Assembly: GCF_044385915.1 (NCBI RefSeq)
Contig: NZ_JBISCC010000113.1
Location: 12,152-76,151, forward strand
Direction of reading: 5' to 3'
Origin: Thalassobellus citreus
GTDB lineage: Bacteria; Bacteroidota; Bacteroidia; Flavobacteriales; Flavobacteriaceae
DNA: 64,000 bases
Shown: piece after piece, positions 36,288-38,915 of the stretch
How positions within the stretch are numbered: the stretch's first letter is position 1
Layout of the letters: every line of letters begins with the position of its first letter
Notes under the pieces: generated by a model
Databases searched by the model: none
What the model was told of the DNA's origin: nothing
What the model saw: the letters and a program-made list of their open reading frames with translations, nothing else
Program-made: the position numbers and the translations under genes

Positions 36288-37199
36288 ATGTTACAAGTAA
36301 AAAATCTATCCTTTAGTTATAAAAACCAACCTGTTTTAAGTAACATTAATTTTTCTGTTAAAACAGGAGAACATTTTTCTATTATAGGAGAAAGCGGCTC
36401 CGGAAAAAGCACGCTTTTAAAACTTCTCTATGGTACTTACGATTTAAATGAAGGCAACATTTACTGGAAAAACCATGAAGTTTTAGGTCCAAAACATAAT
36501 TTAATTATTGGTCCAGAATACATGAAGTATGTAGCGCAAGAATTCGATTTGATGCCATTTATTACGGTTGCGGAAAATATTGGCGCCTTTCTTTCTAACT
36601 TTTACCCTGAAGAAAAACAAGCACGCATCAAAGAACTTCTTAAAGTAGTTGAACTTAATGATGTTGCCAATACTAAAGTTAAATATTTAAGTGGCGGACA
36701 AAAACAACGTGTTGCCATTGCGAGAGCCATTGCTAAACAGCCAGAAATCCTTTTACTAGACGAACCTTTTAGTCATATTGATAATTTTAAAAAACAATCG
36801 TTACGCAGAAGCTTGTTTAAATTTTTAAAAGAAGAAAACATTACATGTATTGTTGCTACACACGATAAAGATGATGTCTTATCTTTTTCAGATAACATGA
36901 TTGTTTTACACGAGGCTAAAATTATGGCAAAAGGCACTCCTGAAAATTTATACAACAATCCAAAAGACAAATTAATCGCTTCCTTTTTTGGAGAATTTAA
37001 TGAGATTAACAACCGTATTGTGTACGCACATCAAATAAGAATAGTTGAAAAATCGAACTTAAAAGCTGTAGTTAAACAATCTTATTTTAAAGGAAATTAT
37101 TATTTAATTGAAGCTGAAATAGGTCATGATATTGTGTTTTTTGAGCATGATGAAAAATTAAAAAACAATCAAATTGTTAATCTGAAAATAGATTTATAA
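36288..37199 (+). CDS. ABC transporter ATP-binding protein
   Basis: GESGSGKSTLL, LSGGQKQRVAIARA and LLLDEP. Confidence 0.8.
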   Translation: MLQVKNLSFSYKNQPVLSNINFSVKTGEHFSIIGESGSGKSTLLKLLYGTYDLNEGNIYWKNHEVLGPKHNLIIGPEYMKYVAQEFDLMPFITVAENIGAFLSNFYPEEKQARIKELLKVVELNDVANTKVKYLSGGQKQRVAIARAIAKQPEILLLDEPFSHIDNFKKQSLRRSLFKFLKEENITCIVATHDKDDVLSFSDNMIVLHEAKIMAKGTPENLYNNPKDKLIASFFGEFNEINNRIVYAHQIRIVEKSNLKAVVKQSYFKGNYYLIEAEIGHDIVFFEHDEKLKNNQIVNLKIDL

Positions 37200-38915
37200 A
37201 ATTTCTCGCTCAGCATACTCCAACCCATTTGGTAATGGAATGGAAGAAAATTCTAAATGCAATACGCGTCTTCTCCTTTGCACTTCTGCCTTTGATGAAG
37301 CATGTAGCAATAATGGTTTTATTAACTGAACACCACCAGAAGCCACCTCACTTACAAAAGGAATAGAATTCGTGGTTATAAGCTTAATTTCTTCATCAAT
37401 TAAGCGTTTGTTATGCGAACCAGGAATTACTTTTAAAGCACCATTTTTCACAGTCGTATCATCCAAATGAATGCGCATAGAAAACGTGTTTTTTGAAATT
37501 TCTTCAGGTGGACACACACTTATCACACCTTTTTTATTTGTCCACGAACTAAAACCTTCCGTTTCTATTTTTTCAGAAACATTTATTGGCACATCTTGAT
37601 GCCAAGTCACATACCAATTATCTTTTGGAGATTTATCAAAATAAATAGCTTTTGTTAAAAAAACATCTCTATCAATAGATTTTATGAGCTTTTTAAAATT
37701 TTTGTTAAACAAAATATCCTTAAGTTCAGGCATTTTATTCAATACTTCTCGCATACCAAAAGCCTGCTCGTTATTGTTTTTAATATAATTATCTAATCTA
37801 GCTTTTAGCTTCCTAATATCACGCTTCGTGTATACATGGTTTAAAATCCCAAAACCTTTATACTCTAATCGTTTTGCAATGGTTCGTAAATTTTTGTCGT
37901 TAATTTCTGTTTCATAAGCGTCAACAGCATCATATAAACGCTCTTTTATATTTCGTTTCAAACGCTCTGGTGCAATTACTTTAACACCTTCACCTAGCCC
38001 TAAAATTTCTTTTTCTAATTCAAAATTAAGCTGAACATTTAAAGAAATTGTCACACCATAATTATCACGACTTACCTCTTTTTGTGAATGATGAAAAGGC
38101 TTTGTTAATATATAAGGTGCTTGTTTGTGGTTTACATAAAGTAAAACCGTTTCAGGTTCCAAATTCGGACTTACTGAAACACCTATAGCGTGCTTATAAA
38201 AGTCTTCTGAATTAAAATTTAAATCGGTTACAAATGCTTTCGAACTTTTTTTAATTGAAATAATTCGGTCTAAAGCCAAATTCATAATGCCTTCATTTTT
38301 TCGACGCCTTCCTACTATAAACCATCTATTTCTAAACTCTTTTAGTAAATAAGGATAAAAGACAAAAGAACTTTCTTGCCGCGCTTTAAAAGATTGATAT
38401 GTAATTTCAATAGCTTGTTTTTTAAGTATAAATTGATAAAGCCTATCTAAAAACCTCAACCCTTTTAAGTTCTCATTTTTTTCAAAATCTATAAGTGATT
38501 TTTCTTGTGTTTTTTGAGTATAAACATGGTCTTCAAGTTTTTGAACCATACTCCCTAATTCTTCAAAATGAGAAAAGCCTTGAAACTGTTTTAAAAATGA
38601 TACAGCTTCCGATAATTTACTTAAATCCTGATTAGAAATTGGACTGTTGGTAATGCTGTAACTTTCATCTTCATATTTATAATATTTTCTATCATAAACA
38701 ACAATGGGCGCATTATAACCTAATTTATCACTTCGCATCATTTGTAAATCTAATTGTACGGTGCGTTTACTAACATCTATATTCTTCCCTTCATATTCAT
38801 AAAGTGCATCAGATACTGCTTCAATTAAGTCATTTAAAGTCCATTGTCTAAAATTATTTTGAAGACATTTATCTATCGTTTTGTATCTAATTAATGCGTT
38901 TTTATTGACTGCCAT
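37194..38915 (-). CDS. Fusion protein: HTH-WYL-WCX regulator (WYL-2, aa 1-330) plus PhyH-like Fe(II)/2OG dioxygenase domain (aa about 345-573, nt 37197..37883)
   Basis: N-terminus is about 60% identical to WYL-1 (MAVNKNALIRYKTIDKCLQN..RWFIVGRR). C-terminus has WHQD (HxD) and KVIPGSH (distal His), the PhyH signature. Single uninterrupted 573-aa ORF. Confidence 0.65.
   Translation of the reverse strand: MAVNKNALIRYKTIDKCLQNNFRQWTLNDLIEAVSDALYEYEGKNIDVSKRTVQLDLQMMRSDKLGYNAPIVVYDRKYYKYEDESYSITNSPISNQDLSKLSEAVSFLKQFQGFSHFEELGSMVQKLEDHVYTQKTQEKSLIDFEKNENLKGLRFLDRLYQFILKKQAIEITYQSFKARQESSFVFYPYLLKEFRNRWFIVGRRRKNEGIMNLALDRIISIKKSSKAFVTDLNFNSEDFYKHAIGVSVSPNLEPETVLLYVNHKQAPYILTKPFHHSQKEVSRDNYGVTISLNVQLNFELEKEILGLGEGVKVIAPERLKRNIKERLYDAVDAYETEINDKNLRTIAKRLEYKGFGILNHVYTKRDIRKLKARLDNYIKNNNEQAFGMREVLNKMPELKDILFNKNFKKLIKSIDRDVFLTKAIYFDKSPKDNWYVTWHQDVPINVSEKIETEGFSSWTNKKGVISVCPPEEISKNTFSMRIHLDDTTVKNGALKVIPGSHNKRLIDEEIKLITTNSIPFVSEVASGGVQLIKPLLLHASSKAEVQRRRRVLHLEFSSIPLPNGLEYAEREIL

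Follow-up and report, generated by a model that had tools for sequence, protein, structure and literature searches.

A gene on the minus strand of the analyzed stretch of Thalassobellus citreus DNA (64,000 nucleotides, hereafter the window) encodes a winged helix-turn-helix (wHTH)–WYL–WCX regulator and a PhyH-type Fe(II)/2-oxoglutarate (2OG) oxygenase in one 573-residue polypeptide. This gene, wyl-phyH (37194..38915, stop codon included; assigned from the ORF list, the translation and Pfam), is real and is conserved across the phylum Bacteroidota. It adjoins operons for RNA-ligase (RtcB) repair, tRNA genes and ribosome rescue, which its product very probably controls. On balance, we favor the view that its product is a dedicated regulator of an RNA-repair regulon, probably an activator, with the oxygenase serving as a second input.

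The fusion gene and its two halves

The wyl-phyH frame begins with an ATG and has no internal stops. A sequence-only reading of the window had correctly described a single 573-residue frame at this place, omitting that it lies on the minus strand. The protein is identical (100%) to a T. citreus protein in the public record, with more than 120 full-length clusters, and the fusion, when sought in other genomes, was found in 328 related stretches among Bacteroidota species genomes. From these we took 80 loci as an orthologue sample. The frame was unbroken in all of them (about 570–588 residues, except for a few truncated by the end of a contig), with no frameshift in 80 independent assemblies. 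A near-identity DNA search of a plasmid collection with the wyl-phyH gene gave no match.

The same genera also contribute database entries of 179–248 residues named 'phytanoyl-CoA dioxygenase family protein', which might be taken to mean that two separate genes have been joined in error during sequencing, assembly or gene calling. We consider the chance of this practically nil, however, given that the frame runs through without interruption in the window as well as in all 80 assemblies. These include two genomes that carry such short entries (L014 and L018), and the entries are therefore internal-start gene calls. The sole truly split case (L082) has a transposase between the halves; at that locus, where an insertion sequence divides the fusion, the two parts still adjoin RtcB and two copies of the candidate operator described below. 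Pfam, fold and intact frame all bear out the proposed single polypeptide, and the Pfam scores of its WYL, WCX and PhyH domains are all above the gathering cut-offs.

Residues 1–90 (38646..38915, minus strand), delimited by conservation, identity to the paralogue WYL-1 and model alignment, are the best-conserved part of the protein (mean column conservation 0.84, 34% of columns invariant). No Pfam HTH model matched this region. Nonetheless, an N-terminal wHTH is present as judged by alignment of the AlphaFold model with DriD and PafBC: the predicted N-terminus comprises helices 5–19, 27–42 and 50–61 and a β-hairpin at 71–81, and the full-length model aligns over some 345 columns with full-length DriD and PafBC (Foldseek E 1e-13). 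The placement of the domains relative to each other is uncertain in this model (pTM 0.55).

The WYL domain spans residues 155–222 (38250..38453, minus strand; PF13280, 45.3 bits against a cut-off of 21.8, 8.9e-12), and a PADLOC WYL profile also matches the protein (2.5e-22). Invariant residues of this domain are S175, R179, K192, R197 and W198; the WYL pocket of CapW is formed by S158/R180/R184/R200 (PMC11662680). The WCX domain follows at residues 254–327 (37935..38156, minus strand; PF25583, 29.1 bits against 23.9, 1.2e-6). A single-sequence search of PDB sequences with the N-terminal half returned nothing at E 0.01, so that profile and fold searches were needed; by profile, the DriD C-domain could be aligned with residues 214–330, a weak sequence match that extends over WYL–WCX.

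The complete oxygenase domain occupies residues ~345–573 (37197..37883, minus strand), with a PhyH Pfam match at residues 396–550 (41 bits, cut-off 22). On examination of the fold, the C-terminal part falls squarely within the 2OG oxygenases, as had been proposed, with a double-stranded β-helix of the PhyH clade. Neither an AlkB-clade fold with its nucleotide-recognition lid nor the JmjC-type fold of ribosomal oxygenases (JmjC/cupin-4; YcfD, NO66) was found in this domain. NCBIfam offered 'chlorinating enzyme' alone, far below threshold, and we therefore give the oxygenase no specific family name.

The WHQD motif pointed out in the sequence-only reading holds up well, with H439, Q440 and D441 invariant among 77 orthologues. 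The same reading had taken the histidine of GALKVIPGSH (H501) as the distal iron ligand, but this residue is only about 90% conserved. A profile alignment with human PHYH pairs PLLLHASSKAEVQRRRRV with PLLIHGSGQNKTQGFRKA, from which it follows that H538 is the distal histidine and R549 the 2-oxoglutarate arginine; they map onto PHYH H264 and R275, the latter being the Arg of PHYH 'GFRKA'. R549, the arginine for the 2OG C5 carboxylate, sits about 11 residues past the distal histidine. The iron triad is thus encoded on the minus strand by codons 37599-37601 (H439), 37593-37595 (D441) and 37302-37304 (H538), and R549 by codon 37269-37271. All four residues are invariant in 77 fusions (50–100% identity) and, again, across 56 fusion and stand-alone sequences.

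The domain, which is basic overall (pI 9.7), shares around 25 invariant residues, several of them basic, with stand-alone Bacteroidota enzymes of ~235 residues. Among those cited are R389, K422, K428, N433, W434, W458, K461, R481, H483, D485, H553 and E555. The presence of about 20 invariant polar residues beyond the Fe/2OG ligands argues for a conserved prime-substrate pocket. Judging from its residues, the domain is apparently a catalytically active Fe(II)/2OG oxygenase, and it falls in a clade whose characterized members act on small molecules.

Repair genes and a recurrent palindrome

On the plus strand, divergent from wyl-phyH, lies a run of repair-related genes. The first gene of this unit, orf192 (39009..39587), has no family match and was found in Flavobacteriaceae only, at 11 of the 80 loci. 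It is followed by PrfH (39943..40662; TIGR03072, 219 bits against a cut-off of 166.65), which with 239 residues is of the long 'PrfH-CT' type, a size class already described (PMC12829566), and by a TPR protein (40667..41200; present in 37/80 loci), a known accessory of PrfH–RtcB modules (PMC6514570). A tRNA-Tyr(GTA) gene (41357..41440; Rfam 57.7 bits, ARAGORN) holds the 'Band-7-associated tRNA' position, as tRNA-Tyr does upstream of Band-7 in 20 loci. Then come an SPFH/Band-7 protein (42144..43244; PF01145, 1.8e-26) and the RNA ligase RtcB-2 (43484..44893; PF01139, 2.6e-38), which is 76% identical to RtcB-1, described below.

Both neighbors named in the earlier reading, PrfH and RtcB, are therefore in place, and the RNA/ribosome-repair link drawn from them is strengthened by phylum-wide divergent synteny with RtcB and by a candidate operator common to the repair promoters. 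RtcB occurs in 59 of the 80 loci and Band-7 in 45, and the two are retained beside orthologues of only 50–60% identity in Cytophagales, Schleiferiaceae and Crocinitomix. At other loci Ro60/TROVE stands in for Band-7, and the space separating the regulator from the operon holds tRNA genes or arrays, which in some relatives reach 17 genes. The core partner is the divergent operon, consisting of one or more tRNAs, then Band-7 or Ro60, then RtcB; PrfH and the TPR protein are Flavobacteriaceae add-ons. Hence the RtcB part of the neighborhood that had been proposed stands, but PrfH, present at 14 of the 80 loci, is not a conserved partner.

In the window, PrfH does not lie directly beside an RtcB gene: a 2.8-kb stretch holding the TPR gene, the tRNA and Band-7 separates it from RtcB-2. 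PrfH probably belongs to the same regulon as RtcB-2. Band-7, tRNA-Tyr and RtcB are all adjacent, matching the Band-7 / b7a-tRNA / RtcB system in the form in which bioRxiv 10.1101/312249 cites its definition.

A 19-bp palindrome, YRCGCA-N7-TGCGYR (consensus ACTACGCAAAAAGATTGCGCA), is matched exactly at four places in the window, where 0.01 would be expected by calculation. No copy falls within a coding sequence, and all four sit in regions upstream of repair genes. The copy at 38956..38974 (TACGCAAAAACATTGCGTA, then after 9 nt ATACTTTG) is upstream of both divergent genes, at 40–59 bp from the ATG of wyl-phyH and 34 bp from that of orf192, and orf192 lies downstream of the palindrome in 10 loci. 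Two more copies, each followed after 9 nt by AATATTTG, are found 123 bp upstream of tRNA-Tyr (41215..41233, TACGCAAAAACATTGCGCA) and 41 bp upstream of the RtcB-2 ATG (43424..43442, TACGCAAAACTATTGCGCA). The fourth (4385..4403) lies between two flanking units, RtcB-1 and the 205-aa ORF/WYL-1 operon, and reads TACGCAAAATAATTGCGCA-N9-AATATTTG in the RtcB-1 direction.

Among related loci, the palindrome was found 20–150 bp upstream of the regulator ATG in 54 of 79, mostly at −57 to −60, while in 25 of the 79 no sequence near the gene fitted the strict pattern exactly. Further copies precede RtcB and tRNAs in these loci. In 95 of 129 instances (74%) a Bacteroidota −7 box, (T/A)AnnTTTG, follows the palindrome after exactly 9 nt, with TTTG beginning exactly 13 nt past the palindrome, which occupies the usual position of the −33 element. 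A sigma-70 promoter scan gave fewer matches than in shuffled sequences and was uninformative, because Bacteroidota promoter elements differ.

Two of the copies were also flagged as resembling minus-strand terminators (41236-41212 and 43444-43422), as might be expected if the palindrome were an RNA element (a hairpin or terminator) and no protein operator. This we regard as very unlikely. The sequence of the arms is itself conserved, beyond pairing; their R/Y positions vary independently, with A..C and G..T combinations both common; and the element keeps a fixed position relative to the −7 box and the regulator ATG, upstream of genes and not downstream. A different palindrome, TTTCTTCTAA-A-TTAGAAGAAA (38927-38947), is the strongest beside the gene, but was rejected as a conserved operator because it recurs only in one other locus (L004).

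A second repair operon is found near the start of the window (695..4279, minus strand), comprising RtcB-1 (2882-4279), a CCA-type nucleotidyltransferase/HD protein (1446-2825) and RlaP (695-1441). It is divergent from WYL-1 (5060..6082, plus strand), a wHTH–WYL–WCX regulator without an oxygenase domain. The regulator half of WYL-PhyH is indeed a paralogue of WYL-1, as had been suggested, with 54% identity over residues 1–334 and 80% over the first 90. Since the wHTH regions are 80% identical, the two proteins would have an operator in common, and in this genome the palindrome, as a candidate operator, may be assigned equally well to either. Apparently WYL-1 fulfils this regulatory function with no oxygenase attached, which counts against our main explanation.

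Proposed regulation and the possible role of the oxygenase

In the scheme that we favor, WYL-PhyH would be a one-component transcription factor for the Bacteroidota RNA-repair regulon, binding the 19-bp palindrome as a dimer through its wHTH domains. The WYL domain would sense a nucleic-acid damage signal, most likely broken RNA, by analogy with the signals of other sensors: ssDNA for DriD, PafBC and CapW, and damaged tRNA ends for RtcR. The protein would then recruit RNA polymerase to promoters without a −33 element, in an activation of the DriD/PafBC type. In DriD-dependent promoters, which have no −35 element, the binding site overlaps the place where that element would be and keeps a constant spacing to the −10 element (PMC13004042). 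The oxygenase might turn over a small metabolite, probably an anionic or nucleoside-like one, whose binding or turnover could provide a second, O2/Fe/2OG-dependent input or a feedback on the regulator's signal.

WYL-PhyH could instead be a repressor that sits on the palindrome over −33 and blocks RNA polymerase until a WYL ligand releases it, with the oxygenase acting as in the favored scheme. CapW and BrxR behave in this way, repressing via ~20-bp palindromes and being freed from DNA by ssDNA binding (PMC11662680). The good matches to PADLOC WYL profiles point in the same direction, and a site 40–59 bp upstream of the gene's own ATG would suit autorepression. We nevertheless deem a repressor somewhat unlikely, since the 9-nt spacing (fixed in 74% of sites) and the lack of a separate −33 element are hallmarks of DriD-type activation, and two activators, DriD and PafBC, come out on top in the fold comparison.

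As to what the oxygenase does, a bolder idea, to which we attach a rather low probability, is that WYL-PhyH is an enzyme-gated sensor of RNA damage: the PhyH domain would oxidize a nucleoside- or nucleotide-like breakdown product of tRNA or rRNA, thus making, destroying or proof-reading the WYL signal. A ribose-methylated or otherwise modified nucleoside is a candidate product here, demethylation of such nucleosides being an established activity of PF05721 enzymes. Alternatively, the domain may be a sensor that is non-catalytic or turns over slowly and has no prime substrate of its own; the regulator's conformation would then be set by whether O2, Fe(II) or 2OG is bound. In other systems, 2OG oxygenases are well known to sense oxygen and metabolites (for example, the HIF prolyl hydroxylases), and the Fe/2OG ligands are invariant here, but so are the ~20 further polar residues common to the stand-alone enzymes, and we judge this option unlikely. 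An O2/2OG/Fe sensor had been suggested in the sequence-only reading; our results neither bear this out nor speak decisively against it. To the same extent, we doubt that the domain repairs or modifies macromolecules, either by demethylating or hydroxylating RNA/tRNA or by hydroxylating a translation or repair protein, despite the repair context, the adjacent tRNA genes, the basic character of the domain and the occurrence of a PhyH-fold protein in the trypanosome RESC RNA-editing complex (8fnc/8fni). Under such an arrangement, the regulator part would deliver the enzyme or report its substrate, as in Ada.

The surroundings of the stand-alone oxygenases bear on this question. Four of the five true cases are orphan genes with unrelated, variable neighbors, suggesting that the chemistry of the enzyme may be unconnected with RNA. 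A single locus (L083) ties a stand-alone enzyme to HD-like and Macro proteins, both of which also occur in the window. The operator palindrome was absent from the stand-alone loci examined. We therefore rejected the idea that the oxygenase is a general member of the repair regulon, these genes being orphans without the operator.

To our knowledge, the induction of RtcB operons is understood only for the proteobacterial RtcR. The present analysis provides a candidate regulator in hundreds of species, with a precise predicted design of operator and promoter, and a predicted regulon that joins RNA ligation, ribosome rescue and extra tRNA genes; it is unusual, moreover, for a WYL regulator to carry a fused oxygenase, here one that is apparently active. 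Should the chemistry of the oxygenase feed into regulation, RNA-damage sensing would be coupled to oxygen and metabolite status, and a widespread, uncharacterized PhyH subfamily would be assigned a role. Enzyme gating would further imply that the induction of RtcB, back-up tRNA and PrfH needs both RNA breakage and the appropriate O2/Fe/2OG status; WYL-PhyH would then represent a transcription factor of a new type, and would be the regulator that RtcB repair outside Proteobacteria has long lacked. Were the domain a non-catalytic or slow sensor, the expression of RNA repair would be tied to oxygen, iron or carbon status.

Relation to known systems

The combination of a WYL regulator with a PhyH or other dioxygenase domain did not appear in any relevant form in the literature searched; Burroughs & Aravind 2016, which lay outside the search, may show the fusion. 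The earlier view that it was undescribed thus agrees with the papers covered, yet the fusion is common and both domains already figure in JGI annotation names. Papers retrieved for WYL together with RtcB merely cited a WYL paper in their reference lists, and no regulator of the Bacteroidota Band-7/tRNA or Ro60 systems was named in the literature searched.

The closest known regulators are DriD (Caulobacter) and PafBC (actinobacteria), activators with the same three-domain fold that control a damage-response regulon; the DriD target site, too, lies at the upstream promoter element, at a fixed distance from the downstream one. However, no enzyme is fused to either of them, their signal is ssDNA and their targets are DNA-damage genes, whereas the predicted regulon of WYL-PhyH is one of RNA repair, with Bacteroidota −7/−33 promoters, and sequence identity is only 15–17%. 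CapW and BrxR share the domain order, have a palindromic operator of ~20 bp that the candidate operator here resembles, and are encoded either upstream of the operon that they control or divergently to it (PMC11662680, PMC9122601), but they are phage-defence repressors without an enzymatic domain. RtcR, as proposed for WYL-PhyH, combines a nucleic-acid sensor with a DNA-binding domain, and it is divergent from an RtcB operon (PMC7790460, PMC4012209); it is, however, a CARF–AAA+–HTH protein of an unrelated family, a sigma-54-dependent activator of rtcBA in Proteobacteria, and has no oxygenase.

The genes of the predicted regulon are those of the Band-7/b7a-tRNA/RtcB, Ro60/Y-RNA/RtcB and PrfH-RtcB2(-TPR) systems, except that here, unlike in the PrfH-RtcB2 module, PrfH is parted from RtcB by the TPR gene, a tRNA and Band-7. 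As for the oxygenase, the PhyH-clade enzymes PHYH, PHYHD1, EctD, proline hydroxylase H11, SnoK/SnoN and AviO1/EvdO are only 12–22% identical to it; in contrast to them, it belongs to a compact Bacteroidota subfamily of ~235 residues and is fused to a transcription factor. In domain architecture, WYL-PhyH can be likened to the CARF–HTH–2OG-Fe(II) proteins of Moraxella (Makarova et al. 2014, supplement), in which the ligand sensor is CARF and not WYL, but which similarly unite a ligand sensor, an HTH and a 2OG oxygenase in one polypeptide.

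A single gene for regulator and oxygenase

The wyl-phyH gene lies at 37194–38915 on the minus strand, a detail missing from the sequence-only reading, and its 573 codons were translated without interruption in the ORF list. Pfam profiles matched a WYL domain (residues 155–222, also recognized by the PADLOC WYL profiles), a WCX domain (254–327) and a PhyH domain (396–550), all above the gathering cut-offs; ORF, Pfam matches and models thus agree that one frame fuses an HTH-WYL-WCX regulator to a PhyH domain, as first proposed. The product was 100% identical to a Thalassobellus citreus ‘WYL domain-containing protein’ in the protein database search. 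Full-length homologues with the same three domains formed more than 120 clusters (61–89% identity), those named being mostly from Flavobacteriaceae, with one from Flexithrix.

When relatives were sought in one genome per species, 328 stretches were found and 80 of them were fetched as loci. All are from Bacteroidota (Flavobacteriales, Cytophagales, Saprospiraceae, Schleiferiaceae and Crocinitomix). Because the frame is continuous in 80/80 (~570–588 aa, a few cut at contig ends) as in the window, and because the only truly split orthologue results from a transposase insertion, a frameshift or stop between the two halves can be dismissed. In that orthologue (locus L082, 3744–6684), a DDE transposase separates a 307-aa WYL part from a 227-aa PhyH part, and the gene still adjoins RtcB, an unannotated 722-aa protein and two copies of the operator described below. 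Short ‘phytanoyl-CoA dioxygenase’ entries (179–248 aa) from the same genera turned out to be internal-start gene calls, not separate genes.

The full-length AlphaFold model (pLDDT 83.8) aligned over ~345 columns with full-length DriD and PafBC, and this predicted structure confirms the N-terminal half as a wHTH–linker–WYL–WCX regulator. Its proposed paralogy with WYL-1, the oxygenase-free regulator at 5060–6082 (+), was borne out by 54% identity overall and 80% in the wHTH.

Fold and active site of the oxygenase domain

Modelled alone, residues 332–573 (pLDDT 94, pTM 0.90) adopted a complete PhyH-clade double-stranded beta-helix, and Foldseek retrieved EvdMO1, AviO1, proline hydroxylase H11, SnoN/SnoK and PHYHD1 with E ~1e-11. 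Model and Foldseek together place the domain inside the 2OG-oxygenase fold. The analogies once drawn with AlkB and ribosomal oxygenases are structurally remote, and membership tests assigned the domain to neither AlkB nor JmjC.

Across 77 orthologues, H439, Q440, D441, H538, S540 and R549 were invariant. H501, the histidine of GALKVIPGSH that had been taken for the distal His, varied among them, and a profile alignment with human PHYH set PLLLHASS...RRRR opposite PLLIHGSG...GFRK, so that the distal His is H538, contrary to that assignment, and the 2OG arginine is R549. About 25 residues (including R389, K422, K428, K461, R481, H483, D485, H553 and E555) are invariant in both the fused domain and its stand-alone relatives, which points to a conserved substrate pocket rather than a decayed domain. 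These relatives measure ~235 aa and share 35–55% identity (2404 matches at E<1e-3 in a 50%-identity representative library). Of five true stand-alone cases whose surroundings were inspected, four are orphan genes, and none carries the operator.

One stand-alone relative, on metagenome contig L083, shares an operon with a 209-aa HD-like protein (5331–5960, H...HD motif) and a Macro protein. Both neighbours have homologues in the WYL-1 locus: the Macro protein is 59% identical to 8105–8617, and the HD-like protein 35% identical (E 5e-38) to a 205-aa ORF (4443–5060, +) directly upstream of WYL-1, for which a Pfam scan gave no match.

A predicted shared operator and the repair genes around it

Searching for palindromes upstream of wyl-phyH orthologues yielded a predicted 19-bp operator, YRCGCA-N7-TGCGYR. 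Most loci have it between −57 and −60 relative to the ATG, and 54/79 have it within −150 to −20. A pattern scan found four copies in the 64-kb window, against 0.01 expected from shuffles: between wyl-phyH and orf192 (39009–39587, +), ahead of tRNA-Tyr/Band-7, 41 bp before RtcB-2, and between RtcB-1 and the WYL-1 operon. The remaining copies in the fetched loci precede RtcB, tRNAs, orf192, RlaP and Ro60. Once instances were oriented by their A-rich spacer, TTTG started exactly 13 nt past the palindrome in 95 of 129, giving palindrome-N9-(T/A)AnnTTTG. We take the last element as the −7 box of Bacteroidota promoters. Each of the four sites in the window is directed toward repair genes. The palindrome might instead encode an RNA hairpin, but the R/Y positions of its two arms vary independently of each other, which speaks for a protein-binding site.

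Between this operator and the wyl-phyH start codon lies a perfect inverted repeat whose arms are 10 bp long (38927–38947, TTTCTTCTAA-A-TTAGAAGAAA); recurring in locus L004 only, it was discarded as a conserved element. Operator-type promoters also face an 835-aa TPR protein (Pfam) or a ~766-aa protein in L004 (upstream of wyl-phyH), L009, L015, L023, L024 and L071 (~7630, +), both possible extra regulon members.

On the strand opposite wyl-phyH, the window carries orf192, PrfH, TPR, tRNA-Tyr(GTA), Band-7/SPFH and RtcB-2, so that the RNA/ribosome-repair neighbourhood noticed at first is indeed present. RtcB is divergent from the regulator in 59/80 loci and Band-7 in 45/80, the most distant orthologues included; Ro60/TROVE-vWA substitutes for Band-7 in several Cytophagales and Saprospiraceae loci. 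PrfH (14/80), TPR (37/80), orf192 (11/80) and the convergent ABC ATPase, S9 peptidase and asd genes (21–29 of 80) are limited, or nearly so, to Flavobacteriaceae-type loci. Among the 80 loci, operon-strand tRNA genes occur between the regulator and Band-7/RtcB, most commonly tRNA-Tyr(GTA). A second system in the window faces WYL-1 in the same divergent layout; it consists of RtcB-1, which shares 76% identity with RtcB-2, together with RlaP and a CCA-type nucleotidyltransferase/HD protein.

Arrays of 8–17 tRNA genes with differing anticodons were seen in L009, L010, L030, L045, L047, L053, L054 and L072, on the operon strand ~0.1–7 kb upstream of the wyl-phyH start, some with an operator ahead. 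Cyanobacterial L-arrays of tRNAs are co-regulated with rtcB under translational stress (PMC8421152), and by analogy these arrays look like stress-inducible back-up tRNA sets. In the window, the 700 bp separating tRNA-Tyr from Band-7 (41440–42140) contain a full-length but sub-threshold YrlA (Y RNA-like) match (41548–41656, 40.4 bits, E 1.4e-6) and weak tRNA-like matches (41612–41662 and 41674–41739), which may be extra tRNA-like RNAs or array remnants. A Flavo-1 motif (RF01705, an sRNA entry in Rfam; 43275–43351, −) scored 52.5 bits, above the gathering cut-off. It falls in the intergenic stretch from Band-7 to RtcB-2, a short way ahead of the RtcB-2 operator, and is opposite in strand to both genes. 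At 239 aa, PrfH itself (39943–40662) has the length of the long ‘PrfH-CT’ type, a Flavobacteriia subfamily that rescues stalled ribosomes, damaged and intact alike (PMC12829566).

The second repair island (695–9097) comprises RlaP, the CCA-type nucleotidyltransferase/HD protein and RtcB-1, divergent from the 205-aa ORF and WYL-1, then DUF4291, an ADP-ribosylglycohydrolase, a 140-aa ORF and two Macro-domain proteins, suggesting a tie between RNA repair and ADP-ribose processing. Elsewhere, a 629-aa AAA_15/AAA_21 (AbiEii/OLD-like) ATPase and the three small same-strand ORFs following it (25773–29583, −), one of which (28840–29583) had no Pfam match, may form a defence-type module.

Proposed regulation and related systems

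The fused architecture, conserved catalytic residues, divergent synteny, and conserved layout of palindrome and promoter are established, and on them we would base the following mechanism. A WYL-PhyH dimer would sit on the palindrome, and its WYL domain would sense damage to nucleic acids, with broken RNA the probable signal, by analogy to DriD, PafBC and CapW, which sense ssDNA, and to RtcR, which senses damaged tRNA (PMC7790460). WYL-PhyH would then turn on tRNA, Band-7 or Ro60, and RtcB, plus PrfH–TPR in this genome. CapW/BrxR-type repression (PMC11662680) is a serious competitor; we lean slightly towards activation because DriD and PafBC are the best fold matches to the regulator half, and because the predicted operator shares the layout of DriD-dependent promoters, in which the binding site takes the place of the upstream element and keeps a constant spacing to the downstream one (PMC13004042).

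The least secure part of this scheme is what the oxygenase does. Our best guess is that it is an active enzyme acting on a small molecule, probably anionic or resembling a nucleoside; its occupancy or turnover would provide a second input to the regulator, or feedback. The domain is basic (pI 9.7), and its PhyH-type clade acts on small molecules, free 2'-O-methyl nucleosides among them (PMC12709175). A pure cofactor sensor, one early suggestion, appears improbable next to the conserved pocket, and we consider a macromolecular repair enzyme, the other, just as doubtful. The sequence-only reading thus holds as an observation, with one residue corrected and the strand added, and in part as an interpretation.

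Its view that the fusion is undescribed stands for the literature searched (a scope outside which Burroughs & Aravind 2016 falls), where no WYL combination with PhyH or a dioxygenase was found, but not for public annotation, which already names both domains (e.g., ‘YafY/ectoine hydroxylase-related dioxygenase’ at JGI). The tie to an RtcB regulon throughout the phylum is new here, as are the predicted layout of operator and promoter and the revised active-site assignment. In Makarova et al. 2014, the WYL fusion partners given in the main text are Cas3, nucleases, helicases, a nucleotidyltransferase, BRCT and TerB, with no dioxygenase among them; the supplement holds an analogous architecture, the Moraxella CARF-HTH-2OG-Fe(II) protein, with CARF instead of WYL. 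The gene content of the divergent loci matches both the ‘Band-7 / b7a-tRNA / RtcB’ and the ‘Ro60 / Y RNA / RtcB’ systems, credited to Burroughs & Aravind 2016 in bioRxiv 10.1101/312249, and the window neighbourhood matches the PrfH-RtcB-TPR accretion (PMC6514570).
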